A stretch of 64,000 bases of DNA from Dehalococcoidia bacterium (lineage in GTDB: Bacteria; Chloroflexota; Dehalococcoidia; UBA2979): contig OZ250164.1 of the NCBI GenBank assembly GCA_965237865.1, forward strand, positions 309,217-373,216, written 5' to 3'. The notes beneath the pieces were generated by a model that made no database searches, was not told the origin of the DNA, and was given only the letters and a program-made list of their open reading frames with translations. Below, piece after piece: positions 1 through 26,968 of the stretch. Positions within the stretch are counted from its first letter, which is position 1, and every line of letters begins with the position of its first letter. A program made the position numbers and the translations under genes.

Positions 1-1164
1 GCCCTCCCAGGAGATTGCGTAGTCACGCTCGCGGCCCCTGCGGGTGCGGTAGGAGACCTGGATCTGCTCGTCGCCCGCGCCGTCCATCAGCGCCGACCTC
101 TGGCGCTCGTCGAGGTTCTGGAGCGGGGTGTCGAGGTCGAAGCCGTAGGCAAGGCCCAGCGCCTCGAGGCGGCGGCGGTACCAGCTCAGCGTGGTGCTGA
201 GGCGCTGGTAGGGCAGGATCGCGCCCTCGTTGATCGTGAGCCGCGGGTTCGGCACCACGAGCTCCGGGTCGAGCTCCATGCGCATGCCGAGGCCGGCGCA
301 GGCCGCGCAGGCGCCGTGCGGGCTGTTGAACGAGAAGTTGCGAGGCTCGATCTCGCCCACCGAGTAGGGCGGATGCGTCGTGTTCGGACAGGCGAAGTGC
401 TCGCTGAAGGTCTCCTCCGAGCGGCCCTCCGGCGCGAACAGCAGCACGCCCTCGCCGAGCTTGAGCGCCTGCTCCACGGAGTCCGCGATGCGCTGCCGCG
501 TCGCCTCGGCGTCCTCGGCGCCGGCGGCCGGGGTGACCAGCCGGTCGACGACGACGTCGATGTCGTGCCACTGGTAGCGGTCGAGGTCGAACTGCTCCTC
601 GATGTCGCGCACGGCGCCGTCGACGCGCACGCGCACGAAGCCGGCGCGCCGGATCGCGTCGAAGACCTGCTCATGCTGCCCGCGGCGGTGGCGCACCACG
701 GGCGCGAGCAGCATCGCGCGCGTGCCGGGCGCCTCGGCGAGGATCGCATCGACGATCTGCTGGATGGTCTGGCGGCGGATCACCTGGCCGCAGTGCGGGC
801 AGTAGGGGATGCCGACGCGGGCGAAGAGCAGCCGCAGGTAGTCGTAGATCTCGGTCACGGTGGCGACGGTGGAGCGCGGGTTCTTCGAGACCCCCTTCTG
901 GTCGATCGAGATCGCGGGCGAGAGGCCGTCGATGTAATCGACGTCCGGCTTCTCCATCAGCCCGAGGAACTGGCGGGCGTAGGCGGAGAGCGACTCTACA
1001 TAACGTCTCTGTCCCTCGGCGTAGATGGTGTCGAAGGCGAGCGAGGACTTGCCGGAGCCGCTGAGCCCGGTGATGACGACGAGGCGATCACGCGGAATCT
1101 CGACGGAGATGTTCTTGAGATTGTGCTCGCGTGCCCCGGTGACGGCGATGCGGTCGGTCGGCAG
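1..1164 (-). CDS. uvrA: Excinuclease ABC subunit A (UvrA), N-terminal ~390 aa; 3' end lies beyond window start
   Basis: Minus-strand translation gives (P)[65 protein letters not shown] (Walker A), CPHCG and [17 protein letters not shown] zinc modules typical of UvrA. Not in ORF track because no stop in window. No ATG/GTG/TTG at the conserved N-terminus; CTG at 1162-1164 with GAGG 6 nt upstream is the best start candidate. Confidence 0.85.
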
Positions 1165-1416
1165 AGGCCACCTCGATTGTGTGGTGGGGGAGGGCGTCGA
1201 GCGGAGCGGGCGGCGCCCCTCGGCGGTTCGAATGGGCGTTCGCTGCCATCGTAGCGCCGCGCCCCCGGCGGCGCCAGCGCGCGGCGCCGGATCGCGAGGT
1301 CAGCGCGTGGGATCGAGGACGGTCGGGAGCGGTCCGTCGCCGTCGAGCGCGGCCGCGAGCGCCTCGCGGTCGGCCACGTCGACGGATGCCACGCCTCCGT
1401 TCCTGGTCGGCAGCGG

Positions 1417-1563
1417 CTACAGCTGGTCCGTTGGCGGCGGGGCGTCATCGAGGACGCAGCGCAGCCCCGCCTCGACAAGAGCGGAGATGGTTGTCTCTCG
1501 CCGCGTCGCTTCTTCCCGCAATCGCTTCAGCAGGGTGTCGTCGATGTTGAGCGTCGTCTTTAT
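1417..1563 (-). CDS. putative ribbon-helix-helix (CopG/VapB-like) small DNA-binding protein
   Basis: Minus-strand frame reads (I)[47 protein letters not shown]-stop, a classic RHH N-terminal beta-strand plus helix pattern. No canonical start codon in frame (ATA only), so the start is uncertain. No cognate toxin gene is evident downstream. Confidence 0.3.
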
Positions 1564-1581
1564 GTGAGACCCGTACGGCGG

Positions 1582-1986
1582 CTACGCGAGCGCCGGAGGC
1601 TCCTCGTCGCTATCGAGCTCGCCGAGCTGGCGGCGCAGTTCCGCCTCGATCTCGCTGAGGTGGGACTCGGTGATGCCCATCGAGGAGAGCGTCTCGCGGA
1701 TCAGGCGCTGCACCTCGTCCATCTCGCGGCGCAGCAGCGCGTCGGCGATCTCGAGCTGCGTCTCGACGGCGCGGAAGCCCTCGCGACGCGGCGTCGCGTC
1801 CTCCATCGCCAGGATCGTCGCCATCAGGCGCGTGAACAGCGTCGAGGTGCGGGCGATGCGCACGCGGTCATCGGGATCCTCGGGGAAGTCGCCCGTGACC
1901 GTGACCTCGAGGCCGGTGCGCGTGTCGGTGGCCACGTACTGGTTGGGCATGGGCTCCGCCGCGGCTCGCTCGCTCGTCGCGCGCAT
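1582..1986 (-). CDS. hypothetical protein (134 aa, acidic, helical)
   Basis: ORF-track ORF with coding-like composition (MRATSERAAAEPMPNQYVATDTRTGLEVTVTGDFPEDPDD...); no family recognised. Confidence 0.45.
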   Translation of the reverse strand: MRATSERAAAEPMPNQYVATDTRTGLEVTVTGDFPEDPDDRVRIARTSTLFTRLMATILAMEDATPRREGFRAVETQLEIADALLRREMDEVQRLIRETLSSMGITESHLSEIEAELRRQLGELDSDEEPPALA

Positions 1987-2084
1987 GGTAGCGCGGGAAC
2001 GGGGCGGCGGCTTCCTCCCGGCGGCGTGAGGGGGTGGGCGCTAGAATCCGCCCCGCGTGCGATGGCGCGCGGGAGGGGGCCGCG

Positions 2085-3086
2085 ATGAAGCTCGGGCTGC
2101 AGGCGCCGATGGGGGACGACTGGCGGGAGACGCTGGAGAAGGTGCGGATCGCCGAGGACCTCGGGATCGAGCACATCACCAGCGGCGGCGAATCGTGGGG
2201 CCCGTCCGCGATCCCGTGGCTCACGCTGCTGGCGGAGCACACGGAGCGCGCCACGATCCTGCCCTCGATCCTCAACGTCTTCTCGCGCAGCCCCGCGACG
2301 CTCGCCCAGGAGTTCGCGCGGCTCGAGCAGATCTCGGAGGGGCGGATGGTGCTCGGCCTCGGCTCCTCGGGCCACCTCGTGATCGAGCACTACTTCGGCG
2401 TGCCGTTCGAGCGGCCGCTGCGCCGCATCCGCGAGTACGTCGAGATCTTCCAGATGCTGATGGCGGGCGAGCGGCTGGAGTACGAAGGCGAGCTGTTCCA
2501 ACTGCAGCGCGGCTTCCGGCTGGACTACCCGCGCGTGCGCGACCGCATCCCGGTCTGGATCGCCGCGATCACCCCTCGCTCGATCCGCCAGACCGGCGAG
2601 ATCGCCGACGGCATCCTCCCGATCCACTGGCCGACGCGGCTGCTGCCGCAGCTCCGAGAACAGCTCGGCGAGGGCGCGAGCAGCGCCGGCCGCGACGCCT
2701 CCGCGATCACGATCGCTCCGTTCACCAACGTCTTCGTCCTCGACGGCAACGCGGACGAGGACGAGCGCAAGTGGATGGCGGCCCGCAGCCACGTGCACCA
2801 CTACGTGAACCGCATGGGCGACTTCTACTGGCGGATGCTCACCCGCGCCGGCCACGAGGACGACGTGGCCGCCTCGAGGGCGGCGTGGGGCGAGCGCGAT
2901 CGCGAGGCCTCGCTGGCCGCCCTCAGCGACGAGATGATCGCCGGCATCCAGGTGATCGGTCCGATCGAGCAGGTGCGCGAGCACCTCGCCGAGCGCGCCC
3001 GCCTCGGGGCGGACGTGCAGATGCTCTACATGCCCGACGGCGACCCGCGCGAGGTCGGTGGCGTGCTGGAGTCGCTGCTCGCCTGA
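2085..3086 (+). CDS. LLM-class (luciferase-like) F420/flavin-dependent oxidoreductase
   Basis: MKLGLQAPMGDDWRETLEKVRIAEDLGIEHITSGGESWG...LGLGSSGHLVIEHYFGVPFERP resembles the luciferase-like monooxygenase family. ATG at 2085 is preceded by GGGAGG at 7 nt spacing; the upstream part of the track ORF (from 2034) is probably not translated. Confidence 0.8.
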   Translation: MKLGLQAPMGDDWRETLEKVRIAEDLGIEHITSGGESWGPSAIPWLTLLAEHTERATILPSILNVFSRSPATLAQEFARLEQISEGRMVLGLGSSGHLVIEHYFGVPFERPLRRIREYVEIFQMLMAGERLEYEGELFQLQRGFRLDYPRVRDRIPVWIAAITPRSIRQTGEIADGILPIHWPTRLLPQLREQLGEGASSAGRDASAITIAPFTNVFVLDGNADEDERKWMAARSHVHHYVNRMGDFYWRMLTRAGHEDDVAASRAAWGERDREASLAALSDEMIAGIQVIGPIEQVREHLAERARLGADVQMLYMPDGDPREVGGVLESLLA

Positions 3087-3104
3087 CCCGCCGTCGCCGA
3101 GGAG

Positions 3105-3920
3105 TTACAGCGCGCGGAAGGTGCGCTTGCCCTCGACGCGCACGATGTGGCCGAAGCCCGGCGCCGGGAAGTGGCAGGCGGCGACGAGGTCGCCGTCCGC
3201 CTCGAGGCGCTCCAGCAGTGCGCTGCGCGTCTCCGCGCTCAGCATGCCGTCGCTGTCGAAGCTGGGGCTCCAGCCGGTCTCCTCGGTCTGCGCCGGGTGG
3301 TGAATCACGTCGCCGAGGATCACGGCCCGCTCGCCCGCCGAGGCGATCACGAAGCTCTGGTGTCCGGGTGTGTGGCCCGGAGTCGGGATCGCCGTAATCT
3401 CGTCGGTCAGCGCGACCTCGCCGGAGACGAGGTCCATCACGCCCAGCGCCTCGAGTGGCTCGATCTGGGCGGTGACGTGCGCCTCGTCGCGGAACTGCTC
3501 CCAGTCCGCCTGCGGCACCACGTAGCGCGCGTTCGCGAACGTGGCCGCGCCGTCCTCGGTGACGCTCCAGCCCACGTGATCGCCGTGCAGGTGCGTGAAC
3601 GCGACGCGCCCGACCGCCTCCGGCTCGATGCCCTGGGCGCGCATGTCCGGCACGAGGTTCCCCGACGCCCCGCCGAGGAAGGCGAAGGGCCCCGGCCCGA
3701 AGCCGGTGTCGATCAGCAGCGTCTCGCCGCCGGAGCGCAGGGCGTAGCACTGTGCGTTCGAGCGCCACGCATCGGCGCTCTCGCCGGAGCCCGGGTACTG
3801 CTCGAAGTAGGGAGCCCACTGCTCGGCGCTCACATCGGGGAAGACGTTGGCGAACGGGAATCCCAGCTCGAGGTCGAGGAGCTGCACGATCTCGACATTG
3901 CCCACGGTGATTGAAGCCAT
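3105..3920 (-). CDS. MBL-fold metallo-hydrolase
   Basis: 271-aa C-terminal part of the 823-aa track ORF; THLHGDHVGW (HxHxDH) and later His/Asp ligands; ATG at 3918-3920 with GGAGG 5 nt upstream. The 823-aa ORF fuses three real genes through low-complexity read-through. Confidence 0.8.
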   Translation of the reverse strand: MASITVGNVEIVQLLDLELGFPFANVFPDVSAEQWAPYFEQYPGSGESADAWRSNAQCYALRSGGETLLIDTGFGPGPFAFLGGASGNLVPDMRAQGIEPEAVGRVAFTHLHGDHVGWSVTEDGAATFANARYVVPQADWEQFRDEAHVTAQIEPLEALGVMDLVSGEVALTDEITAIPTPGHTPGHQSFVIASAGERAVILGDVIHHPAQTEETGWSPSFDSDGMLSAETRSALLERLEADGDLVAACHFPAPGFGHIVRVEGKRTFRAL

Positions 3921-3988
3921 CTCGTCCTCCGTCCGCGCTCCCGACTCCGCCCGTGATGGCGGCCGCGCGCATCCTATCGAACCGCGCG

Positions 3989-5152: not shown

Positions 5153-5173
5153 CGCTGGTCTCCCGTCCGTTCG

Positions 5174-6039: not shown

Positions 6040-6056
6040 GCTGCTCCCCTCGCGGG

Positions 6057-6962: not shown

Positions 6963-7081
6963 CTCCGGCTCCGTTCCGCGCCAGCGATGCGGCGCGCCGG
7001 GATGGTACCGTAGCCCCGGCCTGCAGGGGCCAGGAACGCCAGCGAGACACGATCGCCGGCGGTGCGTGAGAGGCGGGGGCG

Positions 7082-9552: not shown

Positions 9553-11178
9553 ATGCTGCACAGCCTGATGAGCGACGACCACCCCCTCACGCTCGCCATG
9601 CTGTTCGAGCGCGCCGCGACGCAGTTCCCGGACAACGAGCTCGTCAGCCGCTTCCCCGACGGCCGCATCCACCGCTACCGCTACGCCGAATTCGCGCGCC
9701 GCACGCGCAAGCTTGCGAACGCCCTCGCCACGCTCGGCATCGAGCCCGGCGACCGGGTCGCGACGCTCTGCTGGAACGAGCATCGCCACCTGGAGCTCTA
9801 CTTCGCCGTGCCGATGAGCGGCGCCGTCGTGCACACGCTCAACGCGCGCCTGCACGCCGACGAGCTGACCTACATCGTCAACGACGCCGCGGACCGCGCG
9901 CTCTTCGTGCACAGCTCGCTGCTCGCCGCCTTCGAGGAGATCCGCGACCGCGTCTCCGTGGAGCACGTGATCGTGATCCCGGACGACGGCGAGACGCCCG
10001 AGGGGTACCGGGACTACGAGGAGCTGATCGCGGACGAGCCCGAGACGTTCGAGCCGCCGCCGCTGGACGAGCGGCAGGCCTCGGGGATGTGCCACACCTC
10101 GGGCACCACGGGCCGCCCCAAGGGCGTGCTCTACAGCCACCGCTCCACCTCATTGCTGGCGATGATGAGCTGCATGACGGACACCGTCGGCGTCCGCGAG
10201 CGCGACTCGATCCTGCCGGTGGTGCCGATGTACCACGCGAACGCCTGGGGCCTGCCCTACGCCGCGACGTACGCGGGCGCGAAGCAGGTCTTCCCCGGTC
10301 GCGACCTCAGCGCGGAGAGTTTGCTCCGCCTCTTCGCGGACGAGGGCGTCACCCTCACCGGCGGCGTGCCCACCGTCTTCCTCGACGTGCTGCGCATGCT
10401 CGACGAGCGGCCCGGCGAGTGGGACCTGTCCTCGATGCGCTCGATGCTGATCGGCGGATCGGCGGCGCCGCCCTCGCTGATCGAGGGCTTCGACCGCCAC
10501 GGGCTGCACGTCACGCACGCCTGGGGCATGACGGAGATGAACCCGCTCGGCAGCATCGCCAACCTCAAGCGCTCGCACGACGGGCTCGACGACGAAGGCA
10601 CGCTCGCCGTGCGTGCCCGCCAGGGCCACGCGCAGCCGCTGATCCAGTTCCGCCACGTCTCCGAGGACGGCACGGTGCAGCCCTGGGACGGCGAAGCGCT
10701 CGGCGAGTTGCAGGTGCGCGGGCCGACGATCGCGCGCGCCTACTACGGCGTCGAGCGCGCCGACGACTTCGCCGGCGACGGCTGGTTCCGCACGGGCGAC
10801 ATCGTGACGATCGACGAGCACGGCTCGATCCTGATCGCCGACCGCGCGCGCGACGTGGTGAAGTCCGGCGGCGAGTGGATCAGCAGCGTGGCGCTGGAGA
10901 ACGCGCTGATGGCGCATCCCGCCGTCGTCGAGGCCGCCGTCTTCGCGGCCGAGGACGAGCGCTGGGGCGAGCGCCCGCTGGCCGCCGTCGTCCACGCCCC
11001 GGACGTGAGCGCCAGCGACGAGGAGCTGCGCGCCTGGCTGGAGCCGCAGTTCCTGCGCTGGTGGCTCCCCGCCGGCTTCGTCGCCGTCGACGAAGTCCCG
11101 AAGACCTCGACCGGCAAGTTCGACAAGGCCGCGCTGCGCGAGCGCTACGGGCGGCGGCTGATCGAGGGCGCGGACTAG
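9553..11178 (+). CDS. AMP-dependent acyl-CoA synthetase / fatty-acid--CoA ligase
   Basis: 541 aa; MCHTSGTTGRPKGVLYSHRS (AMP-binding motif), GWFRTGD, and the terminal K in PKTSTGKFDK. Confidence 0.85.
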   Translation: MLHSLMSDDHPLTLAMLFERAATQFPDNELVSRFPDGRIHRYRYAEFARRTRKLANALATLGIEPGDRVATLCWNEHRHLELYFAVPMSGAVVHTLNARLHADELTYIVNDAADRALFVHSSLLAAFEEIRDRVSVEHVIVIPDDGETPEGYRDYEELIADEPETFEPPPLDERQASGMCHTSGTTGRPKGVLYSHRSTSLLAMMSCMTDTVGVRERDSILPVVPMYHANAWGLPYAATYAGAKQVFPGRDLSAESLLRLFADEGVTLTGGVPTVFLDVLRMLDERPGEWDLSSMRSMLIGGSAAPPSLIEGFDRHGLHVTHAWGMTEMNPLGSIANLKRSHDGLDDEGTLAVRARQGHAQPLIQFRHVSEDGTVQPWDGEALGELQVRGPTIARAYYGVERADDFAGDGWFRTGDIVTIDEHGSILIADRARDVVKSGGEWISSVALENALMAHPAVVEAAVFAAEDERWGERPLAAVVHAPDVSASDEELRAWLEPQFLRWWLPAGFVAVDEVPKTSTGKFDKAALRERYGRRLIEGAD

Positions 11179-11222
11179 GGCCGGCGGCCGGGGGGCGCCA
11201 CGGGGAGCCGGGCAGGAGCGAC

Positions 11223-11732
11223 GTGGAGACGAGAATCCTCGACTGGGACGACGTGCAGGGCCTGCTCGCGGGGTTGAGCGACCGCCTCGGTGAGGGCTCG
11301 GTGGTGTGGGGCGTGCCGCGCGGCGGCAGCCACGTCGCCTCGATGCTCAGCGTGCGCGGCGTCCGCGTCGCGCTCTCGCCCGTGGAGGCGACGGTCGCCG
11401 TCGACGACGTGATCGACACCGGCCGGACTGCCGAGCGCGTGCGCCTCCGCTACGGCATCGAGACGCTGGCGCTCGTCACGCGCCACGAGGGCGAGCTGTA
11501 CTACCTCTTCCCCTGGGAGCGCGCGGAGCTCGATAGCGGGTTGGACGCGGACGCCCGGGACCACGTCACGAGGCTGCTGCTGCTGCTCGGCGACGAGCCG
11601 CAGCGTGCGGAGTTGCAGCAGACGCCCGATCGCGTCGTCGAGTCGTGGAAGACGCTGTACGCGGGCTACCTCTCGGAGCCCGGCGAACTCAAGGCGTCGC
11701 TGAACTGGTTCAGCGACGCACCCCGGAGATGA
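11223..11732 (+). CDS. type-I phosphoribosyltransferase-like domain fused in frame to the N-terminal helix of GTP cyclohydrolase I; frame terminates at a C4-run frameshift
   Basis: GTG at 11223 follows GGAGCG. VVWGVPRGGSHVASML and VAVDDVIDTGRT give the PPi loop and PRPP-binding motif. This is followed without a stop by DARDHVTRLLLLLGDEPQRAELQQTPDRVVESWKTLYAGY, the FolE N-terminal helix. The frame stops at 11730-11732. Confidence 0.55.
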   Translation: METRILDWDDVQGLLAGLSDRLGEGSVVWGVPRGGSHVASMLSVRGVRVALSPVEATVAVDDVIDTGRTAERVRLRYGIETLALVTRHEGELYYLFPWERAELDSGLDADARDHVTRLLLLLGDEPQRAELQQTPDRVVESWKTLYAGYLSEPGELKASLNWFSDAPRR

Positions 11733-14940: not shown

Positions 14941-16350
14941 ATGACGAACCCCTACCGCGAACTGCCCGCGATCGAGCGGCTGCTGGCGCACCCGCGCGTG
15001 GCCCCGCTCGCCGAGCGCCACGGCCACGACGCGATCGTGCGCGTCGCGCGCGAGGTGCTCGACGACTACCGCGCGGAGATCGAGCGCTCCGGCGCGCCGC
15101 CCGAGCAGCCCGCCGCCGAGGCGGTGGCCGATCGCGCCGCCAGCCTGGAGCCGAGCCTGCGCCGCGTCGTCAACGCGAGCGGCGTGATCATCCACACGAA
15201 CCTCGGACGCGCTCCGCTCTCGCAGGCGACGATCGCCGCGATGGCCGCCGCCTCCGAGGGCTACTCGAACATCGAGTTCGATCTCGACGCGGGGGAGCGC
15301 GGATCGCGCTTCAGCCACCTCGGCGGACTGCTGGCGAGCGTGAGCGGGGCCGAGGCGGGAATCGCGGTCAACAACAACGCCTCTGCGCTGCTGCTGGCGC
15401 TCTCGGCGCTCTGTACCGGCGGCGAGGTGGTGATCGCGCGCGGCCAGCTGGTCGAGATCGGCGGCGGCTTCCGCATCCCCGACGTGATGCGCCAGTCCGG
15501 CGCGACGCTCGTCGAGGTCGGCACGACGAACCGCACGTACCTGCGCGACTACGCGGAGGCGATCAGCGAGCGCACCGTGGCGCTGCTGCGCGTTCACGCC
15601 TCGAACTTCCGCGTCGTCGGCTTCACCGAGGAGACGCCGCTCCCGGCGCTGGCCTCGCTCGCGCGCGAGCGCGGGCTGTTGCTGCTCGACGACCTCGGGA
15701 GCGGGGCGCTGCTCGATCCCCGCGAGTACGGGCTGGCGGCGGAGCCGCTGGTGCGCGACTCGGTCGCCGCCGGCGTGGACGTGGCGCTGTTCTCCGGCGA
15801 CAAGCTGATCGGCGGGCCGCAGGCGGGTATCGCGGTCGGGCGCGAGCGCGCGATCGCAACGATGCAGCGCCACCCGCTCGCGCGAGCCGTGCGCATGGAC
15901 AAGGCCTCGATCGCCGGGCTGGCCGCCACCCTCGGCCACTACACCCGCGGCGAGGCCGTCGAGGAGATCCCGATCTGGCGCATGATCGCCGCCCCGCTCG
16001 ACGGGCTGCGGCGGCGCGCGCGCCGCTGGGTGCGCGCCTGCGCCGGCGACGCGGACGCCTCCGTCGACGTGGCGCGCTCGATGGTCGGGGGGGGCTCGCT
16101 GCCGGGCGAGGGCCTGGAGTCCGCGGTCTGCGCGATCGCCGCGCCGCCCGGCGGCGCCGACGCCTTCGCCGCCGCGCTGCGCCGCGCCGACCCGCCGATC
16201 GTCGCGCGCATCGAGCGCGGCGCGGTGCTGCTTGACCCGCGCACGGTCGCGCCCTCGGACGATCGCCACGTCGCCGACTCGCTGACCGCGCTCTGCGGCC
16301 CCGAGGAGGGCGCCGCCGACGGCAGCCCGGAGGATTCCACTGGACGATAA
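14941..16350 (+). CDS. selA: L-seryl-tRNA(Sec) selenium transferase
   Basis: 469 aa; VINASGVIIHTNLGRAPL, NNNASALLLAL and FSGDKLIGGPQAGI (PLP lysine) match the SelA family. Confidence 0.8.
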   Translation: MTNPYRELPAIERLLAHPRVAPLAERHGHDAIVRVAREVLDDYRAEIERSGAPPEQPAAEAVADRAASLEPSLRRVVNASGVIIHTNLGRAPLSQATIAAMAAASEGYSNIEFDLDAGERGSRFSHLGGLLASVSGAEAGIAVNNNASALLLALSALCTGGEVVIARGQLVEIGGGFRIPDVMRQSGATLVEVGTTNRTYLRDYAEAISERTVALLRVHASNFRVVGFTEETPLPALASLARERGLLLLDDLGSGALLDPREYGLAAEPLVRDSVAAGVDVALFSGDKLIGGPQAGIAVGRERAIATMQRHPLARAVRMDKASIAGLAATLGHYTRGEAVEEIPIWRMIAAPLDGLRRRARRWVRACAGDADASVDVARSMVGGGSLPGEGLESAVCAIAAPPGGADAFAAALRRADPPIVARIERGAVLLDPRTVAPSDDRHVADSLTALCGPEEGAADGSPEDSTGR

Positions 16351-18742
16351 GGCGCTCGCCGTCCTCGAGTTCCCGGCGATCCGGGAGCGGCTCGCGCGGG
16401 AGACCTCGTTCGCGGCCGGGCGCGAGCTGGCGCTGGCGCTGCGCCCCGTCGCCGACCGCGAGCGTGCGGTCCGGCGCCAGCGCGAGACCGCCGAGGCGGT
16501 GCGCCTGCGCACCCTGCGCGTCGACGTCGGGATGGGCGGCGTGCGCGACGTGCGGCCCTCGGCGCGCGCGGCGGGGCTTGGGCAGGTGCTCGCCGCCTCC
16601 GAGCTGCTGGAGATCGCGGAGCTCGCGAGGGCGTCGACGCGGCTGCGGCGCACCTTCGTGCGCACGCGGCAGGAGACGCCGCTGCTCTCCACGCGCGCCG
16701 CCGGACTCGCGGACCTCGAGGCGCTGCGCGAGCTAATCGCCACGGCGGTCGACGAGCGCGGCGAGGTGCGCGACTCGGCGAGCCGCGAGCTGGCGGCGAT
16801 CCGCCGCGAGCGCGACGCCGTGCACGGCCGCCTGCAGCAGCGCATGGAGGCGCTGCTGCGCTCCGCCTCACTGCGGCCCTCGCTGCAGGACCCGATCGTC
16901 ACGCTGCGCGACGGGCGCTACGTGCTGCCGGTGCGCGCCGAGGCCCGCAGCGCGGTGCCCGGCATCGTGCACGACAGCTCTGCCTCCGGCGCGACGATCT
17001 ACGTCGAGCCGCTCGCCGTGATCGAGCTCGGCAACCGCTGGCGCGAGCTGCAGGCGCAGGAGCGCCACGAGATCGAGCGCATCATGCGCACGCTCTCCGA
17101 GGCGGCCGGTGAGGCGGAGCACGAGCTCGTCGACGCCGTCGAGCGCCTCGCGCGACTCGACCTCGCGCTGGCGAAGGCGCGCCTCGCCGAGCAGATCGGC
17201 GCCGCCGACTTGACCGAGGCGGGGAACGACGCGCCCTGGCTCGTCGAGGCGCCCGCGGCGCTACGGCTGGTGGAAGCGCGGCACCCCCTGCTCGAGGGCG
17301 AGGTCGTCCCCGTCACCATCGAGGCCGGCGGCGAGACGCGCGCGCTGCTGATCACCGGGCCGAACACCGGCGGCAAGACCGTCGCACTGAAGACCGCGGG
17401 CCTGCTCTCGCTGATGGCCCTCGCCGGGCTGCCCGTCCCGGCCGACGAGGGCACCCGCATCCCCGTCTACGACGCCGTCTTCGCCGACATCGGCGACGAG
17501 CAGTCGATCGAGCAGTCGCTCTCGACGTTCTCGGGCCACGTGACGGCGATCATCGACATCCTCGAACGCGCCGGGCCGCGCTCGCTCGTGCTGCTCGACG
17601 AACTGGGCGCCGGCACCGACCCGACCGAGGGCGCCGCGCTGGCGATCGCGATCGTCGGGCGGCTCGTCGAGGCGGGCGCGACGCTGATCGCGACCACGCA
17701 CCACAGCGAGCTGAAGCTGTTCGCGCACCGCGAGGCGGGGGTCCTCAACGCATCCGTTGAGTTCGACGTGGAGACGCTCGCGCCCACCTACCGGCTGCGT
17801 ATCGGCGTGCCGGGCCAGTCCAACGCGCTCGCGATCGCCGAGCGGCTGGGCATGCCGGGCGCGATCGTCGAGGCCGCGCGCGAGGGCCTCTCGCACGGGC
17901 AGCGCGACCTCGAGGCGGTGCTCGGCGACCTGCGCACGCAGCTGAGCGCCGCCGAGGAGCGCGCCGCCCGCGCCGCCGCCGACCGCGACGCCGCCGAGGA
18001 GCTGCGCGGCGACCTCGAGCGGCAGCTCGCGACGCTGGCCGGCGAGAGCGAACGGCTGCGCGCCGAGTCGCGCGAGCGCGTGCGCGAGGAGGTCCGCGAC
18101 GCGGAGCGGATGCTGCAGCGCGCGCGCCGCGAGGTGGAGTCGGCGCGCCTCGAACAGGCGGCGGCCGACCTCGAGCGCGCGCGCGAGGCCGTCGCCGCGC
18201 TCGCGCCCGAACCGCCGCCCGCGCCGCCGCCCAGCGAAGACTCCCTCTCCCCGCGGGAGAGGGTTGGGGTGAGGGCTCCGCGCACGCTGCCGTCGCCGGA
18301 GCTGGGCTCGCGGGTCTGGCTGCGCGGCATCGGCTCACCGGGCGAGGCGCTGAGCGAGCCGGACGCGGCGGGCGAGTTCGAGGTGCAGCTCGGCGCGCTG
18401 CGCACCCGTGTGCGCCTCGCCCAGGTCGAGCGCATCGAGCAGCCGGACGGCGCGGTGATCGTGGCGGTGAGCACGCCGCCCGCGCCGAGCGCGCCCGAGC
18501 AGATCGAGATCCGCGGCCAGATCGTCGCCGAGGCGCTGCCCTCGGTGGAGGCCTTCCTCGACGACGCGGCGCGCGCCGGACGCGAGCGCGTGCGCATCAT
18601 CCACGGCAAGGGCACCGGCGCGCTGCGCCGCGCCGTGCGCGAGCTGCTCGCGCGCCACCCCCTGGTCACCGCCTATGAGAGCGGCACGCCCCAGGAAGGC
18701 GGCGAGGGCGTCACCGTCGCCCTCCTCGCCCACGTGCGGTAG
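16340..18742 (+). CDS. mutS2: endonuclease MutS2 (MutS domain plus C-terminal Smr)
   Basis: LITGPNTGGKTVALKTAGL (Walker A), DELGAGTDPTEGAALA, and a C-terminal Smr region (RIIHGKGTGALRRAVRELL). The N-terminus LDDKALAVLEFPAIRERL is conserved but lies upstream of the first canonical start (GTG 16499); CTG at 16340 with GGAGGA 6 nt upstream is the likely start. Confidence 0.85.
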   Translation: MDDKALAVLEFPAIRERLARETSFAAGRELALALRPVADRERAVRRQRETAEAVRLRTLRVDVGMGGVRDVRPSARAAGLGQVLAASELLEIAELARASTRLRRTFVRTRQETPLLSTRAAGLADLEALRELIATAVDERGEVRDSASRELAAIRRERDAVHGRLQQRMEALLRSASLRPSLQDPIVTLRDGRYVLPVRAEARSAVPGIVHDSSASGATIYVEPLAVIELGNRWRELQAQERHEIERIMRTLSEAAGEAEHELVDAVERLARLDLALAKARLAEQIGAADLTEAGNDAPWLVEAPAALRLVEARHPLLEGEVVPVTIEAGGETRALLITGPNTGGKTVALKTAGLLSLMALAGLPVPADEGTRIPVYDAVFADIGDEQSIEQSLSTFSGHVTAIIDILERAGPRSLVLLDELGAGTDPTEGAALAIAIVGRLVEAGATLIATTHHSELKLFAHREAGVLNASVEFDVETLAPTYRLRIGVPGQSNALAIAERLGMPGAIVEAAREGLSHGQRDLEAVLGDLRTQLSAAEERAARAAADRDAAEELRGDLERQLATLAGESERLRAESRERVREEVRDAERMLQRARREVESARLEQAAADLERAREAVAALAPEPPPAPPPSEDSLSPRERVGVRAPRTLPSPELGSRVWLRGIGSPGEALSEPDAAGEFEVQLGALRTRVRLAQVERIEQPDGAVIVAVSTPPAPSAPEQIEIRGQIVAEALPSVEAFLDDAARAGRERVRIIHGKGTGALRRAVRELLARHPLVTAYESGTPQEGGEGVTVALLAHVR

Positions 18743-18887
18743 GCAGCGCCGGATGCGCTGTCCGCCGGGTTGTACTGGGCGGACCCTGGTCATTGCGAAT
18801 GTGATATACCTGACGAGACCGCTTCGGCCGGGGGTGCCTGCGTCTCGCGCGGCGTTGGCGAGCGGTGGGCCGGGCCCGGTGAAACGC

Positions 18888-20561: not shown

Positions 20562-22084
20562 TATGGAGTGACCGGTTGTCAAGCAGCACCGGCGGTGGTC
20601 GTGGCGATCCGGCTCCGGAACGGGGGGAGATGGACGAACGAGGGCGCTGCTTCGACGACGTGTCACTCTGATATTCGCGGGTTGCCTGGGGCCTTGCCGC
20701 ATGACCGTGCTTCGCCGGGAGGGGTCGCCGTCTACGGTCGCGGGTTGACGGCGCCGGGCGCCGCTGCCGCATAGCTGTACCGCGCGTCCTCCTGAGCCTG
20801 CCCTCGCTCATCCACCCCCTCCTGCTCCGGAGCGGCGTATCGCCAGCTCCGCCTTCGCCGCGGACCGCGCGCGTGCTGTCAGGCCGCCGCCTGCTCCCGG
20901 GCGCCGATGTTCAGCACCGCCCACAGGTAACCCGCGAGTTCACGGGCGACGGCCACGTTCGCCACGACCGATGGCTTGCCGTGAGCGGCCAGCCGCCGGT
21001 GGCGGCGATAGAGCCGGGTCTGCGCCCGGTCGGCCAACACCACGGCCCAGCCCGGCTGGCCCTCCCTGCGCTTGCGCAGCGCTGCCCCCACCCGCGGCGG
21101 GTGGCGGTAGTGCCAGGCGCTCTCCACCAGGATGCGGCGCACGTGGCTGTTCCCTGTCTTCGTGATCGGTCCCCGCCGCTGACGGGCGCCGCTGCTGTAC
21201 TCGCTCGGCGTGAGCCCGAGGTAGGACATCAACTGCCGGGCGCTGCCGAAGCGCGTGACGTCGCCGAGCTCGGCCAGCACCGTCATCGCCGTCACCGTGT
21301 CGACCCCGCGGAAGCAGCGCAGCAGCCCCACCGCCTCGCGGTAGTCGTCGCTGGCGGCACACGCGGCCAGTTCCTGCTCCAGCGTGCGCAGCCGCTCCTC
21401 CACGCCCTCGAGCGCGCGCAGGTAGTCGTCGAAGGTGGCCTGCGCGGCCGGGTGTTCGAAGCGCAGCGTCAGCAGCCAGCGGCGGTGCCGCAGCGTCCAG
21501 TTCCGGCCGTCGTAGGCGATGCCGCGCCGCAGCAGCAGCTTCGCCAGGCGGTGGCGCGCCCGGGTGCGGTCGGTCACGGCGTCCTCGCGCGCCCGGCAGA
21601 GGTCGCGCACCGCCTCCTGGTCGATGGTCGGGGGATGCACCGCCGTGAGCAGGTCCGCGCGCAGCAGCTCGGCCAGCTTCCTGGCGTCGCGGCGGTCGGT
21701 CTTGACGCGGTCGCCGGGCCGCCTGGGGATGAGCGCCGGCGCGATCACCTGGCATTCGATGCCCTCGGCCTCGAGCTGGCGCTGCAGCGCGAAGCCCCCC
21801 GGCCCCGCCTCGTAGCAGGCCACGACCGGCCCCGGCGCCATGCGCCGCAGGCGCTGCGCGAGCCGCTTCACCGCCTTCGGCTCGTTCGCCAGCTGCCACT
21901 CCTCGGGCCGCTCGGCCCCCGGCGCCAGCACCGCCACGTGGATCGCCCGCGCGTGTGCATCCATCCCTGCATATGTGGTAGTCATCTTCCTGACCGGCTC
22001 CTTTCGCATGCGGCTCTGCAGCCCTCGCGTCTGTAACCCGCGAGTTTGCGGACTCGGAGCCGGTCACTCCATACGGTCTACAAC
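20562..22084 (-). mobile_element. IS110-family insertion sequence (approximate boundaries)
   Basis: A DEDD transposase gene sits between two unrelated surface-protein ORFs, with a 318-bp non-coding flank on its 3' side and ~75 bp on its 5' side. The 14-mer GTAACCCGCGAGTT occurs at 20927-20940 and 22033-22046. Termini are not defined; IS110-family elements lack terminal inverted repeats. Confidence 0.5.
20879..21985 (-). CDS. IS110-family transposase (DEDD/RuvC-like N-domain plus Tnp C-domain)
   Basis: MTTTYAGMDAHARAIHVAVL... with C-terminal ...ITKTGNSHVRRILVESAWH, typical of IS110/IS1111 transposases. The second in-frame Met was chosen as start. Confidence 0.85.
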   Translation of the reverse strand: MTTTYAGMDAHARAIHVAVLAPGAERPEEWQLANEPKAVKRLAQRLRRMAPGPVVACYEAGPGGFALQRQLEAEGIECQVIAPALIPRRPGDRVKTDRRDARKLAELLRADLLTAVHPPTIDQEAVRDLCRAREDAVTDRTRARHRLAKLLLRRGIAYDGRNWTLRHRRWLLTLRFEHPAAQATFDDYLRALEGVEERLRTLEQELAACAASDDYREAVGLLRCFRGVDTVTAMTVLAELGDVTRFGSARQLMSYLGLTPSEYSSGARQRRGPITKTGNSHVRRILVESAWHYRHPPRVGAALRKRREGQPGWAVVLADRAQTRLYRRHRRLAAHGKPSVVANVAVARELAGYLWAVLNIGAREQAAA

Positions 22085-22726
22085 ATGCCCGACGCCATCG
22101 ACGCCCGGCTCGCCTCGCTGGCGCTGAGCGGCGTGGACATCGGCGAGTTCGACGGCCGCAGGCCGGTGTACGTGGGCGTCCTCGGGGAGGGCGTGAGCGA
22201 GACCACGGTCGAAGCGGAGACGGTCCAGTCCGGCGCGAGCGTCGCGATCACGCCCGCCGACGCTGATGATGACGCGGAGAACGGCCACCAGGCCGCAATC
22301 GAGGATGGCACGGAGATCACGGTCACGGTGACCTCGGAGGACGGTAGCCGGACGCGGGTGTACCGGGTGCGGATCGGCGAGCCGGAAGAAGGCGAGCCGG
22401 AAGATGGCGAGCCGGAAGAAGAGGACCAGGAACCGGGGCGCTCGCCGGAGTGCCTGCGCGGCCTGGTCGCGGGCCGCTTCAGCCTTGTCGTCTACGAGGG
22501 TGGCAGCCTGGCCGACCTCGAGTCCTGTGCGCGGAGCCTGTCGGTGACGGCGCTGTACAGCTGGCAAGACGGCGACTTCGTGCACTACATCCTGGGCGCG
22601 CCGGCGTTCGTGAACGAGGGGTTCGTGGCGCTCTTCCCGGCGGCTCTGCCTCCTGACACCCCGCTGATTGCCCAGCGCGAGCTGCCGCCGCCGGAGGCGG
22701 AAGCCCCCGCAGAGGACTCGCCGTAG
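22085..22726 (+). CDS. cadherin-like beta-sandwich domain protein (possible fragment) with acidic GEPE-repeat linker
   Basis: LASLALSGVDIGEFDGRRPVYVGVLGEGVSETTVEAETVQSGASVAITPAD...GTEITVTVTSEDGSRTRVYRVRI fits the cadherin-like beta-sandwich pattern, followed by the repeated linker GEPEEGEPEDGEPEE. No signal peptide; sits immediately 5' of the IS. Confidence 0.45.
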   Translation: MPDAIDARLASLALSGVDIGEFDGRRPVYVGVLGEGVSETTVEAETVQSGASVAITPADADDDAENGHQAAIEDGTEITVTVTSEDGSRTRVYRVRIGEPEEGEPEDGEPEEEDQEPGRSPECLRGLVAGRFSLVVYEGGSLADLESCARSLSVTALYSWQDGDFVHYILGAPAFVNEGFVALFPAALPPDTPLIAQRELPPPEAEAPAEDSP

Positions 22727-22838
22727 CCCGGCCGTCACGGCTGCGCGCCCGCCGCGGATCGCGTTGACGCTACCGGGGCGCGGGTGGACGATGATTCGGC
22801 CCAGCGCGCCGACCTGAATCCCCATCTCCGGAGGCACC

Positions 22839-23942
22839 GTGAACCTGCGTACGCCGGGTCCGATTCCCGTTCCCGCGGAAGTCGCACAGGCGGGCGTGGC
22901 CCCGATGATCAACCATCGCGGGCCGGAGTTCGCCGAACTGATGGCGGCCCTCGGCGAGGGTCTGCAGTACGCCTACCGCACCGAGAACGACGTGCTCGTG
23001 CTGACCGGCTCCGGCACCTCCGGCATGGAGGCCGCCGTCGTCAACCACATCTCGCCGGGTGATCGCGTGCTGGTGGTCACCGTCGGCGTCTTCGGCGAGC
23101 GCTTCCTGGAGCTGGTCCGCATCTACGGAGGCGATCCGGTGCACCTCGCCTTCGAGTACGGCACGGCCGCCGACCCGAACCGCATCGACGAGGCCCTCGC
23201 CGCCGACGGCGAGATCCGCACCGTGCTGGTCACGCACAACGAGACCTCGACCGGCGTGACCAACCCGCTCGAGGAGATCGCGCAGGTCGTCCGGCGTCAC
23301 GACCGGCTGCTGATCGTGGACGCGATCTCGTCGCTCTCCTCGATCCCGGTGGAGACGGACGCGTGGGGCCTCGACGTGGTCGTGTCCGGCTCGCAGAAGG
23401 GCTGGATGGTCGCGCCCGGGCTCTCCTTCGTGAGCGTCAGCGAGCGCGCGTGGGAGGCGCAGGACCGCTGCACCACGCCTCGGATGTACCTCGATCTGCG
23501 GCGCGCGCAGCGCTCGATGCAGGCCGGCCAGACGCCGTGGACCCCGGCGATCTCGCTCATGTTCCAGCTGCGGCAGGCGCTCTCCATGCTGCGCGCCGAG
23601 GGCATCGAGAACGTCTGGGCGCGCCACCACGACACCGCCGAGCGCGTCCGCGAGGGCATCCGGGAGCTCGGCCTCGAGCTCTACGCCGCCGAGGGCGTCC
23701 GCTCCGACACCGTGACGGCAATCCTGCCGCCGGAAGGCGTCGCCGCGAACGAGCTGCGCGCGATTGCCCGCTCGGACTTCGGGACCGACTTCGCGGGCGG
23801 CCAGGCCAGCCTCGGAGGCAAGATCATCCGCTTCGGCCACCTCGGCTATACGAGCGAGGAGGACGTGCGCGGCGCCCTCGAAGCGCTGCAGGGCAGCCTC
23901 GCGAAGCTCGGCCACGCCCCCGTGGCGGCGGCGAGCGGCTAG
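22839..23942 (+). CDS. class V aminotransferase (serine--glyoxylate / phosphoserine aminotransferase family)
   Basis: 367 aa; VLVTHNETSTGV and VVSGSQKGWMVAPGLS (PLP lysine) match AGXT-type aminotransferases; directly upstream of serA. Confidence 0.75.
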   Translation: MNLRTPGPIPVPAEVAQAGVAPMINHRGPEFAELMAALGEGLQYAYRTENDVLVLTGSGTSGMEAAVVNHISPGDRVLVVTVGVFGERFLELVRIYGGDPVHLAFEYGTAADPNRIDEALAADGEIRTVLVTHNETSTGVTNPLEEIAQVVRRHDRLLIVDAISSLSSIPVETDAWGLDVVVSGSQKGWMVAPGLSFVSVSERAWEAQDRCTTPRMYLDLRRAQRSMQAGQTPWTPAISLMFQLRQALSMLRAEGIENVWARHHDTAERVREGIRELGLELYAAEGVRSDTVTAILPPEGVAANELRAIARSDFGTDFAGGQASLGGKIIRFGHLGYTSEEDVRGALEALQGSLAKLGHAPVAAASG

Positions 23943-23970
23943 GGCGCCCCAGGCCACGGGAGGCGGCTCG

Positions 23971-25551
23971 ATGGCGACCGTCCTCGTTGCCGACCAGATC
24001 GCCGAACAGGGCATCGCGCGCCTGCGCGAGCGCCACGACGCCGTAGTCCGCACCGGTCTGAGCGAGGGTGAACTCGTCGCAGCCGTCGCCGACGTGGCCG
24101 GCATCATCGTGCGCAGCCAGACCCGCATCACCGAGCGCGTGATCGAGGCCGCCCCGCAGCTCACGGTGATCGGCCGCGCCGGAGTCGGCGTCGACAACAT
24201 CGACCTCGAGGCGGCGACGGCGCGCGGCGTGGTCGTCGTCAACGCGCCGCTCTCCAACACCATCTCCGCCATCGAGCACGCCCTCGCGCTGCTGCTCGCC
24301 GTCGCGCGCAACGTGCCGCAGGGCCACGCCTCGCTGCGCGCGGGCCGCTGGGAGCGCAGCAAGCTGCAGGGGGTCGAGCTGGCCGGGCACACGCTCGGCA
24401 TCGTCGGCCTCGGGCGCATCGGCACGGGCGTGGCGCAGCGTGCGCGCGCCTTCGAAATGCGCGTGGTCGCCCACGACCCGTTCGTCTCCAGCGAGCGCGC
24501 CGCCTCGATCGGCGTCGAGCTGGTCTCGCTCGACGCGCTGCTGGAGCAGTCCGACTTCGTGACGCTGCACACCGCGCTGCACGAGGAGACGCGAGGGCTG
24601 ATCAGCCGCGAGCAGCTCGCGCGCATGAAGCCGGGCGCCTACCTCGTCAACACCGCGCGCGGCGCGCTCGTGGACGAGCAGGCGCTGCATGAGGCGGTCG
24701 AGGGCGGCGTGATCGCCGGCGCGGCGATCGACGTGTTCAGCGAGGAGCCCGCGATCGGCAACGTGCTCACTGCCACGGACGGCATCGTCGTCACGCCGCA
24801 CCTCGCCGCCTCGACCGCCGAGGCGCAGGACCGCGCCGCCGTCGACGTCGTCGACGAGGTGCTGGCCGTGCTCGCGGGGCGGCCCGCCCGCTTCGCGGTC
24901 AACGCCCCGCTCGTCGACCCGGAGACGATGGCGATCATCGGCCCCTACATCGACGCCGCCGAGGTCGCGGCCTGCGTCGCCTCGCAGCTCCAGGGCGGCC
25001 AGCTCGCGCAGTTGAGGATCGATTACCTCGGAGAGATCGCGAACCACGAGACGGGTCCGCTGCGCGCCGCTGCCATCGTCGGGGTGCTGGAGCGCGTCTC
25101 GTCCGGCAAGGTGACGATCGTCAACGCCGACCAGGAGGCGCGGGAGCACGGCATCGGCATCGTCGAGGACCGCGGCGCGGCGCGTGAGCCCTACGCGAAC
25201 CTCGTGGTCGTGCGCGTCATCTCCGAGAACGGCGGCACCAGCGTCGCCGCCACGCACACGCCGGCGGGGGTCCGCATCGTCGGCATCGACGGCTTCGAGG
25301 TCGAGATCGCACCCGGCGCGGCGCCCTACGTGCTGGCGCTGGAGAACGTGGACCAGCCGGGCATGGTCGGACAGGTCGGCGGGCTGCTCGGCGAGTGGTC
25401 GATCAACATCAACTTCATGTCCGTCGCCAGCGGCGAGGCGGGCCGCGCGCTGATGGTGCTCGGCATCGACCGCCCGCTCGACGCCGGCGAGCGGGCCGCC
25501 CTCGAGGCGCTCGACGCGATCTTCGGCGTGCGGCTGATCAACCTCACGTAG
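23971..25551 (+). CDS. serA: D-3-phosphoglycerate dehydrogenase (with ASB and ACT domains)
   Basis: 527 aa; NAD-binding GIVGLGRIGTGVA, catalytic region, and a C-terminal ACT domain (GMVGQVGGLLGEWSINI). Confidence 0.85.
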   Translation: MATVLVADQIAEQGIARLRERHDAVVRTGLSEGELVAAVADVAGIIVRSQTRITERVIEAAPQLTVIGRAGVGVDNIDLEAATARGVVVVNAPLSNTISAIEHALALLLAVARNVPQGHASLRAGRWERSKLQGVELAGHTLGIVGLGRIGTGVAQRARAFEMRVVAHDPFVSSERAASIGVELVSLDALLEQSDFVTLHTALHEETRGLISREQLARMKPGAYLVNTARGALVDEQALHEAVEGGVIAGAAIDVFSEEPAIGNVLTATDGIVVTPHLAASTAEAQDRAAVDVVDEVLAVLAGRPARFAVNAPLVDPETMAIIGPYIDAAEVAACVASQLQGGQLAQLRIDYLGEIANHETGPLRAAAIVGVLERVSSGKVTIVNADQEAREHGIGIVEDRGAAREPYANLVVVRVISENGGTSVAATHTPAGVRIVGIDGFEVEIAPGAAPYVLALENVDQPGMVGQVGGLLGEWSININFMSVASGEAGRALMVLGIDRPLDAGERAALEALDAIFGVRLINLT

Positions 25552-25563
25552 CCGCCGGACCGG

Positions 25564-26865
25564 TCAGTCGAGGCGGTTGAGGACCATGCCGGTGGCCAGC
25601 TTCGGGTAGAAGTACGTCGCCTTCTGCGGCAGCACGTCGCCCGAGCCGGCCACGGCGATCACCTGGTCGATGCGCGGCGGATTGACGAGGAAGGCGAGGC
25701 GGTTCGGGCCGTCCTGCACCCACTCCCAGGCGTGTCCGGCGTCCTCGCTGAACCGCACGCGCCCGGCCCTCAGCTCCGCCGCGTCGATGCCGAGCAGCGG
25801 GTGGAGAATCGCCTGGTTCAGGATCTGCACGTCGAGCGCGCGCGACGCCTCGGACCACTCGGCTGGGAGGAGCGCATCGATTGCCTCCGGCGAGCGTGGA
25901 CGCAGCAGGTGCAGGCCGCCGCCCGGCAGTCCGATCAGCCCGAACGTCCCCGGCTGCGACGCTTCCGCTTGCACCTGCTCCCAGAGCCGCATTGCCGCTC
26001 CGCTATCCGCCGGGTTGGCCGAGTCCGAGACGCGCGGCGTCAGCGGCTCGACGACGTAGAGCTCCTCGAGCCGCTCGATGAAGTCCCCTGCGAGGTCCAC
26101 GTCCGGGACCAGTCGGTGGGTCGGCAGGATGTCGAGGCCCGGGTCGTTCTCGGGGACGAGGCAGGCGAGCATCCAGCGGCGGCCCTCCTCGTCGCGATCC
26201 TCAAGGTGTCCGAGCGCCGTCTCGTAGCGGTGGTGGCCGTCGGCGATCGTGACCGGCGCGGCGGCGGCCGCCTCCACCAGCCGTGCGATCTCCGAAGGAT
26301 CGTCGATCATCCAGAGGCGGTGCTCATCCCCGCGTCCGTCCGTGGCGGCGAAGGCCGGCTCGCGCGAGGCGACCTCCGCGAGCAGCGCCGAGGCCGTGCC
26401 CGTGTCTCCCCCGGAAATCACGAGGATCGGGCTCACGTTCGTCTGTGTCGCTTGCAGCAGGGCCAGCCGCTCCGCCTTCGGGTCGGCCATCGTGCGCTCG
26501 TGCGGAAGCACCTCGCCCGCCTCGAACGGGCTCAGGCGCAGCCTCGCGAAGTAGCCCCGCCGCACGCGCCGCGGGCCATCGTCGCCCTCGATGCGGGTGC
26601 GCTGCTCGTAGGCGTAGAGCGCGGGCTCGGGATCGCGGAGCAGCACGCCCTCGGCCTCCCAGCTGCGCAGCGCGGCCGCCGCCTCCTCGAAGCGCTGCTC
26701 GCCGCCGCGAGGCGACTCGACGCGCGCGACGTTGTAGGGCGAGCGAGCGTGCAGCGCGGCCACGTCGTCCTCGTCGACCACGTCGTAGGGCGGGGCGATG
26801 ACGGCGTCCGGATCGACGCGCGAGGGGTCGTAGCGGAGCCCGCGGAAGGGAGCGATCTCTGCGAT
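25564..26865 (-). CDS. DUF1015 family protein
   Basis: Conserved N-terminus (I)AEIAPFRGLRYDP...VIAPPYDVV. The track ORF adds a 38-aa Arg/Pro leader from ATG 26979; AGGAGG lies 6 nt upstream of the ATC codon at 26863-26865. Confidence 0.7.
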   Translation of the reverse strand: MAEIAPFRGLRYDPSRVDPDAVIAPPYDVVDEDDVAALHARSPYNVARVESPRGGEQRFEEAAAALRSWEAEGVLLRDPEPALYAYEQRTRIEGDDGPRRVRRGYFARLRLSPFEAGEVLPHERTMADPKAERLALLQATQTNVSPILVISGGDTGTASALLAEVASREPAFAATDGRGDEHRLWMIDDPSEIARLVEAAAAAPVTIADGHHRYETALGHLEDRDEEGRRWMLACLVPENDPGLDILPTHRLVPDVDLAGDFIERLEELYVVEPLTPRVSDSANPADSGAAMRLWEQVQAEASQPGTFGLIGLPGGGLHLLRPRSPEAIDALLPAEWSEASRALDVQILNQAILHPLLGIDAAELRAGRVRFSEDAGHAWEWVQDGPNRLAFLVNPPRIDQVIAVAGSGDVLPQKATYFYPKLATGMVLNRLD

Positions 26866-26968
26866 GGGGCGCCTCCTCGGCTGCTGCGGGGTAGCCCGTC
26901 CACGCGGGCCGCGGTTAGGCTGCGGCGGAGCGGTCCGCCCGGCCGCAGCATGGCCGCCCGGAAGGTAC

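Follow-up and report, generated by a model that had tools for sequence, protein, structure and literature searches.

The window analysed here is a 64,000-nucleotide stretch of contig OZ250164.1 from a Dehalococcoidia bacterium (Chloroflexota), with a G+C content of 71.8%. It carries three genes, uvrA, mutS2 and a member of the DUF1015 family, whose conserved N-termini begin at CTG, CTG and ATC instead of an ordinary start codon (ATG, GTG or TTG). A sequence-only reading of the window had pointed out these codons and the Shine-Dalgarno (SD) motifs in front of them, and had left two explanations: real use of unusual initiation codons, or sequence errors that mask the true starts. The genes and the features of their start regions, with related loci designated L and a number, are listed below.

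1-1164, minus strand: uvrA coding sequence, N-terminal 388 codons, running off the left end of the window
1162-1164, minus strand: predicted uvrA initiation codon CTG, 9 residues before GAREHNLK; also CTG in L081, L082 and L092
1169-1174, minus strand: uvrA SD GAGGTG, 4 nt before the CTG; its GAGG core (1174-1171) lies 6 nt before it
14941-16350, plus strand: selA-like gene, with SelA Pfam domains on the orthologue; its TAA stop (16348-16350) overlaps mutS2 codons 3-4
16329-16334, plus strand: mutS2 SD GGAGGA, inside the 3' end of selA, 5 nt from the CTG (6 nt counted from GGAGG)
16340-18742, plus strand: mutS2 coding sequence, 800 codons
16340-16342, plus strand: predicted mutS2 initiation codon CTG, aligned to ATG, GTG or TTG in about 30 of 42 more distant relatives
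16499-16501, plus strand: rejected mutS2 start GTG, the first canonical codon, 53 codons inside the gene
25564-26865, minus strand: DUF1015 (SerBK-like) coding sequence, 433 codons plus stop; PF06245 on 120 of 120 listed homologues
26863-26865, minus strand: predicted DUF1015 initiation codon ATC, 5 residues before PFRGLRY
26872-26877, minus strand: DUF1015 SD AGGAGG, 6 nt before the ATC
26977-26979, minus strand: rejected DUF1015 start GTG, 38 codons upstream, overlapping the divergent HIT gene

Probable start sites of uvrA, mutS2 and the DUF1015 gene

On re-reading, the conserved part of uvrA was again found to begin at CTG 1162-1164 with GAGG 6 nt upstream, and the longer motif GAGGTG (1174-1169) is a full match to the 16S rRNA tail. 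The earlier statement that no ATG, GTG or TTG lies nearby in frame holds for the whole region from the upstream in-frame stop to 69 codons past the CTG. The first canonical codon, 69 codons 3' of the CTG, is located beyond the Walker A motif GLSGSGKS, which occupies UvrA residues 32-39 when numbered from the CTG. About 100 of the 120 best homologues start with M-P-x-D-x-I-x-V-x directly before GAREHNLK, such that their Met, 9 residues ahead of that motif, aligns with the CTG; the family start pattern M-P-x-D-x-I coincides with the CTG of the window. At the protein level, the nearest homologue with a canonical Met is P0004. The window UvrA is 57-94% identical to proteins named UvrA by NCBI that carry the UvrA_inter and UvrA_DNA-bind domains (PF17760, PF17755). 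Its assignment as a class I excinuclease ABC subunit A combines the N-terminal Walker A in the window with the interaction and DNA-binding domains seen on homologues, the C-terminal half lying outside the window.

The conserved N-terminus of mutS2 was likewise confirmed to begin at CTG 16340, 53 codons before GTG 16499. GGAGGA is present upstream as described by the sequence-only reading, and only its 6-nt spacer required correction: the distance is 5 nt after GGAGGA and 6 nt only when counted from GGAGG. Upstream of the CTG the frame is open for 19 codons, none of which is canonical in the window. The roughly 30 relatives with ATG, GTG or TTG at the aligned codon continue with D-[DE]-K-x-L-x-x-L-E-F, and most of the remaining relatives among the 42 have an ATG one or two codons upstream of the aligned position. 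The family start pattern M-D-[DE]-K coincides with the CTG, from which the predicted N-terminal peptide reads MDDKALAVLEFPAIR, and most matches in tblastn comparisons with relatives extend from query residue 1. The protein is 95% identical over 802 aa to the orthologue in L083, which carries the MutS_V and Smr domains (PF00488, PF01713), and the nearest MutS2 proteins among GTDB species representatives, which do not include the source genome, belong to Dehalococcoidia metagenome-assembled genomes (61-66% identity). The domain V ATPase and Smr domains on orthologues identify it as MutS2, and MutS2 proteins of Chloroflexota and Firmicutes align with it over the full length. One other codon, ATT 16334-16336, was considered as the mutS2 start and rejected; it abuts the SD without a spacer and is absent from L084, L086-L088 and L091.

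The third gene was compared with the 120 closest cluster representatives of the DUF1015 family in a public protein collection. The family start, M/V-x-x-I-x-PFRGLRY, falls at the position of the ATC, and PFRGLRY makes up residues 6-12 when counted from it. The ATC at 26863-26865 before this motif and AGGAGG 6 nt upstream were both found as reported. The canonical alternative 38 codons upstream also exists, although its codon is not the ATG that had been named; it is GTG 26979-26977.

Start positions were also estimated independently of start codons. A codon-usage log-likelihood model was trained on long open reading frames of the window, and the position with the maximum score to the stop was taken as the estimate. 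This estimator gave 1164 for uvrA and 16340 for mutS2, both exact matches, and for DUF1015 a position 2 codons away from 26865. Five of the 58 predicted genes had no ATG, GTG or TTG within 8 codons of the estimate. Two of these five, at 11184-11732 and at 41317-41724 (the latter NuoA-like by our own reading), were rejected as further non-canonical starts, with a plausible SD-preceded GTG 11-13 codons away. These GTG codons account for two of the flagged genes and leave uvrA, mutS2 and DUF1015, about 3 of the 58 genes. In an automatic count of 53 genes, 31 started with ATG, 20 with GTG and 2 with TTG.

The SD motifs of the three genes are long by the standard of the window. Complementarity to the 16S rRNA tail extends over 6 nt in uvrA, 5 nt in mutS2 and 6 nt in DUF1015; the 55 canonical genes have a median of 4 nt, and 6 nt is reached in just 4 of them. 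The core SD spacings at the three sites are 4-6 nt. As a background rate, with spacing of 4-10 nt, a 4-mer SD core precedes 9.8% of positions in the window and a 5-mer core 3.1%.

Conservation in related genomes

Relatives were collected through MutS2, which retrieved 80 GTDB loci, and through separate searches for DUF1015 and uvrA; among the 80 MutS2 loci, the DUF1015 gene was found in none and uvrA in one (L008). L083, with about 92% nucleotide identity to the window, is a circular 3.58-Mb contig at 16.7x (ENA ERZ26167216, ctg495839).

The uvrA CTG is present in four genomes: the window, L081 (94% protein identity), and L082 and L092 (78-80%). L081 and L082 share the SD GAGGTG with the window, L092 has the longer GAGGTGATC, and spacer length varies between 6 and 7 nt. 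The window and L082 differ at 0, 0 and 9 first, second and third codon positions, so that over 29 codons 9 codon changes are synonymous and none is non-synonymous. Public gene calls for UvrA begin either at MEKPDV..., with loss of the first Walker A, or at a far-upstream ATG.

The uvrA genes of the 3-4x relatives contain frameshifts, among them an extra G in 'tacggcccgccag' of L081 (around 9975-9995), and the called proteins P0001 (L082), P0003 (L081) and P0013 (L092) hold out-of-frame stretches rich in Arg and Ala. At the uvrA start region these contigs can be trusted only because several of them agree.

The mutS2 CTG is found in eight genomes (the window, L083, L084, L086, L087, L088, L091 and L001), with an SD (GGAGG, GGGAG or GAGGAG) 5-8 nt upstream in all eight and no upstream in-frame canonical codon in six. 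In L002 the start is ATG. The overlap sequence of selA and mutS2, CTGGACGATAAG, in which the selA TAA lies 6 nt after the CTG, is kept in six genomes. L001 and L091 have the CTG without the overlap, and coupling to selA is therefore not needed to explain the codon. Differences between the window and L088 downstream of the CTG number 5, 1 and 12 by codon position; the 53 codons before GTG 16499 evolve as coding sequence, with third-position differences dominating, and are homologous to the N-termini of relatives. Public MutS2 calls range from 725 to 813 aa. The gene caller's start in L083, with an 813-aa product, is an ATG at 21247-21249 (minus strand) inside selA; the window has GAG at this position, so the ATG is not conserved.

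The DUF1015 gene has ATC in eight genomes (the window, L083, L084, L086, L087, L088, L090 and L091) and ATT in L089. Protein identity to the window across these relatives runs from 91% down to 52%. All nine genomes keep an SD at 6-8 nt from the ATC or ATT, and the remaining leader diverges with insertions and deletions. Between the window and L087, differences downstream of the ATC number 4, 3 and 12 by codon position. In L088 the frame is closed by a TAG 6 codons ahead of the ATC, in L084 and L091 it contains no canonical codon upstream, and none of these three has an equivalent of GTG 26979-26977; the leader peptide is not conserved. A scan of metagenomes for DUF1015 gave one distant locus (36% identity) without a match to PFRGLRY.

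Calls for the 120 DUF1015 representatives were heterogeneous: 44 were at the family start, 24 were extended upstream, 40 began from a GTG just before APPYDV, 11 began further downstream and 1 began one residue before PF. Among the 24 extended calls, the family-start residue is Ile in 20 and Val in 4, and it is preceded by four residues that differ between entries (rrpp, gdaa, rsvp, rstp, gsra, rsta, rrha, rsap, qela, ggra). The 51 entries truncated with loss of PFRGLRY and the 20 with a spurious leader before Ile make 71 of the 120 miscalled. Where the DNA of truncated calls was read (L084, L088 and L091), the codon was ATC in all three.

The three genes share one pattern. The SD is kept 5-8 nt upstream in every genome while spacers, leaders and synonymous sites diverge. 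Downstream of each unusual codon the differences fall mostly at third positions; upstream, identity falls and insertions and deletions appear. This change at the codon itself indicates that coding begins there and that the codon is inherited. Each of the three codons differs from AUG by one base and occupies the place at which orthologues start. The check proposed by the sequence-only reading, to see which codon orthologues from close relatives carry, gave CTG, CTG and ATC (with one ATT), and canonical codons in L002 mutS2 and in more distant orthologues, which have ATG, GTG or TTG at exactly the aligned codon.

It is extremely improbable that sequencing or assembly errors hide ordinary ATG, GTG or TTG starts, whether through a base-call error or, in uvrA, through an indel near GTG 1171-1169. 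The frame break in the window's ComEC gene at about 29314 made the concern reasonable, and frameshifts in uvrA of related low-coverage assemblies add to it, yet it does not apply to the three starts. Between 3 and 8 further assemblies, made from different samples, carry identical codons, among them the circular 16.7x genome of L083, and this second explanation offered by the sequence-only reading was dropped. For uvrA, a start at GTG 1171-1169, which lies out of frame in the SD, combined with an indel was rejected: GTG and CTG are 7 nt apart in the window and 8 nt apart in L082, and a single indel therefore cannot explain both.

A start at the canonical codons chosen by gene callers is very improbable as well. 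Under this explanation MutS2 would begin at GTG 16499, DUF1015 at GTG 26979 with an Arg/Pro-rich leader, and uvrA would be truncated or dead, and public gene calls for the three proteins do precisely so. The N-terminal segments that would be skipped are nevertheless under purifying selection and homologous to the family N-termini, and a truncated UvrA would lose its first Walker A. The DUF1015 leaders are not conserved, being interrupted by the stop in L088 and having no start codon in L084 and L091, and GTG 26979 overlaps the divergent HIT gene.

Several points weigh against initiation at the CTG and ATC codons. The three starts are supported by sequence comparison, and none of the organisms has been cultured. 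At 72% GC, Leu and Ile are in any case preferentially encoded by CTG and ATC, and conservation of the third base alone is therefore a weak argument; the case rests on the position, the missing alternatives and the SD. For uvrA, support comes from only four genomes, two of them near-identical around the start, and three of the four, assembled at 3-4x, carry frameshifts in other parts of the gene. In the window and L083, the DUF1015 frame extends without a stop to a canonical codon upstream, and in L083 an ATG also stands in frame with the mutS2 CTG, 12 codons ahead of it.

Proposed initiation at CUG and AUC and its possible origin

Taken together, the comparisons make it very probable that uvrA, mutS2 and DUF1015 are translated from the near-cognate start codons CUG, CUG and AUC, inherited within an uncultured clade of Dehalococcoidia with 70-74% GC. 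The occurrence of the same codons in independently assembled relatives points to real initiation outside AUG, GUG and UUG, the first of the two explanations originally put forward. In every feature that can be read from sequence, the three are putative members of the class of SD-led near-cognate initiation.

In the proposed mechanism, a strong SD 5-8 nt upstream would place the 30S subunit at the CUG or AUC. The ordinary initiator formylmethionyl-tRNA (fMet-tRNA) would then pair with the codon with one mismatch, and the protein would begin with Met where its orthologues begin. Output from CUG and AUC would be low and partly offset by the strong SDs. Both the use of fMet-tRNA and the low output unless a strong SD compensates are drawn from what is generally known of bacterial initiation and from measurements in E. 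coli. There, reporters starting with AUA, AUC, AUU or CUG reached about 1-2% of the level of AUG (0.02-3% across constructs), which puts these codons in the class just below AUG, GUG and UUG (Hecht et al., bioRxiv 10.1101/063800). The codon class is the same as in the window, but the measurements come from E. coli reporters, and the 5-6-nt SDs of this lineage provide another context. Reinitiation by ribosomes that terminate at the overlapping selA stop may assist the start of mutS2. The selA stop overlapping the mutS2 CTG, with the SD inside selA, resembles known termination-reinitiation systems in six genomes, unlike the layout in L001 and L091, which lack the overlap.

Starts of this kind have been described in Deinococcus deserti, in which N-terminal proteomics showed an ATC start for dnaA and a CTG start for rpsL (Baudet et al. 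2010, PMC2830850); a CTG start of hppk (Deide_03051) and an ATA start of infC were inferred by alignment (PMC2830850). Here, as in Deinococcus, the genome is GC-rich and ATC and CTG stand at the head of conserved housekeeping genes, relatives share the codon, and annotated N-termini that are heterogeneous and poorly conserved fall into line when the start is moved to the non-canonical codon. The present cases differ in phylum (Chloroflexota, not Deinococcota), in the genes concerned (uvrA, mutS2 and DUF1015) and in the evidence, which is comparative as opposed to mass-spectrometric proof. They also differ in density, with 3 in about 58 genes of one window compared to 4 reported in the whole Deinococcus genome. 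In the literature library that was searched, no paper connected Chloroflexi, uvrA or DUF1015 with non-canonical starts. Near-cognate initiation is thus already known, and what is new is its presence in uvrA, mutS2 and DUF1015 of this lineage.

Why the codons persist is a separate question. A weak start codon underlies translational control in infC, which encodes initiation factor 3 (IF3) and starts with AUU or AUA, and in E. coli pcnB, which starts with AUU (PMC2830850). By analogy with the infC AUU, we tentatively suggest that the weak codons may be kept to set low or IF3-sensitive expression of two DNA-repair proteins and a serine-pathway enzyme, a purpose to which we give somewhat less than an even chance. 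Deep conservation in DUF1015 and the stronger SDs are the points in its favour. In a neighbour-joining tree of the conserved DUF1015 core, a clade of 46 representatives has 43 non-canonical and 3 canonical starts, truncated calls being scored as non-canonical on the basis of the three checked cases. An Ile-codon start prevails across a whole DUF1015 clade, and this conservation over long distances within one family resembles infC and pcnB. Autoregulation of infC through discrimination by IF3 was shown experimentally, unlike for UvrA, MutS2 and DUF1015, which have no known link to IF3. A further point against a regulatory role is that the DUF1015 tree requires about 9 changes from canonical to non-canonical starts or back over its 108 leaves, a number also compatible with near-neutral drift.

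Drift itself provides a possible, if rather doubtful, account, and differs from selected weak codons only on why the codons persist. It holds that CUG and AUC initiation is real but serves no regulatory purpose, the codons having arisen through GC-driven change (TTG to CTG; ATT, ATA or ATG to ATC) in lowly expressed genes and being tolerated via the strong SD. At a genomic GC content of 70-74%, the near-cognates in use, CTG and ATC, are those richest in GC, the sole ATT case belongs to the locus with the lowest GC (69%), and L002 mutS2 has ATG although L001 and the clade of the window have CTG; the roughly 9 switches in the DUF1015 tree point the same way. Drift does not readily explain why the DUF1015 ATC or ATT persists down to 52% protein identity and prevails 43:3 in the 46-member clade, when one GC-neutral C-to-G change would give back ATG. 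The SDs moreover exceed those of most window genes in strength, which suggests that the expression level is under selection.

A lineage-wide change in the initiation machinery, in which relaxed discrimination by IF3, a changed decoding region in 16S rRNA or an additional initiator tRNA would make CUG and AUC efficient and routine, appears distinctly unlikely. The frequency of 3 in 58 genes (about 5%) is far above typical annotated frequencies, and the clade keeps all three starts. The shares of ATG, GTG and TTG among the start codons of well-annotated bacterial genomes are 81.8%, 13.8% and 4.35% (bioRxiv 10.1101/063800). Against such a change, 55 of the 58 genes in the window have ordinary starts, no tRNA gene was found in the window, and about 150 kb of related loci gave no further SD-supported non-canonical start, these loci being largely syntenic with the window and the estimator noisy there. 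On the related loci the estimator found mutS2 again in all six syntenic loci and DUF1015 in all but L083 and L086; its other flags were noisy and had no SD-supported codon.

A broader proposal, which we regard as unlikely, is that a clade of high-GC soil Chloroflexota uses CUG and AUC starts at a few percent of its genes, tens of times above well-studied bacteria, through relaxed proofreading by IF3, 16S rRNA or initiator tRNA, and that the AUC or AUU of DUF1015 is an anciently conserved translational control element like the infC AUU. Were the density of 3 in 58 to hold genome-wide, it would point to altered start-codon proofreading in the lineage.

Gene callers accept only ATG, GTG and TTG, and these genes are therefore systematically misannotated across the clade. 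For a whole group of uncultured Chloroflexota, the miscalls carry over into alignments of the families, predicted structures and the calling of pseudogenes. Natural initiation at CUG and AUC is well supported in few cases, to which the three starts add a second high-GC phylum and three gene families. In DUF1015, the stability of an Ile-codon start across a deep clade offers a natural system in which a selected set-point can be compared with a tolerated codon.

Neighbouring genes and elements

The ComEC gene (28142-30456, minus strand) is split between two frames at about 29314. In comparison with the intact 772-aa orthologue of L083, residues 1-381 match 30456-29314 and residues 383-773 match 29314-28142 in another frame. 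The break is either an assembly indel error or a real pseudogene.

The longest open reading frame of the HIT gene, which is divergent from DUF1015, starts at a plus-strand ATG (26864-26866) that overlaps the DUF1015 ATC on the opposite strand. The coding signal of the gene and the family N-terminus (..ERYCIFC..) point instead to TTG 26969-26971 (plus strand), which is without a good SD, and the HIT gene may be leaderless or weakly initiated.

Within the divergent spacer between HIT and DUF1015, the motif CGCAGCCTAA(C/A)CGC (window 26911-26924, minus strand) lies about 45 nt upstream of the ATC, and it is kept in L083, L084, L086, L087 and L088 amid the diverging leader. The region of the motif gave no Rfam match, and no Rfam family was found in the spacer or in the window as a whole. 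The motif could be a candidate promoter or operator element.

Convergent to the DUF1015 gene are genes for a class-V aminotransferase and a phosphoglycerate dehydrogenase (serA-like), located at 22818-25551 on the plus strand. This arrangement of the aminotransferase, dehydrogenase and DUF1015 genes is conserved in all syntenic relatives. DUF1015 has been proposed to be SerBK, a serine kinase able to replace SerB and usually encoded beside serA and serC (bioRxiv 10.1101/2024.10.14.618325). The gene of the window combines PF06245 and the PFRGLRY motif with serA- and serC-like neighbours, features that mark it as a putative DUF1015/SerBK gene, and its aminotransferase and dehydrogenase neighbourhood fits the proposed SerBK function.

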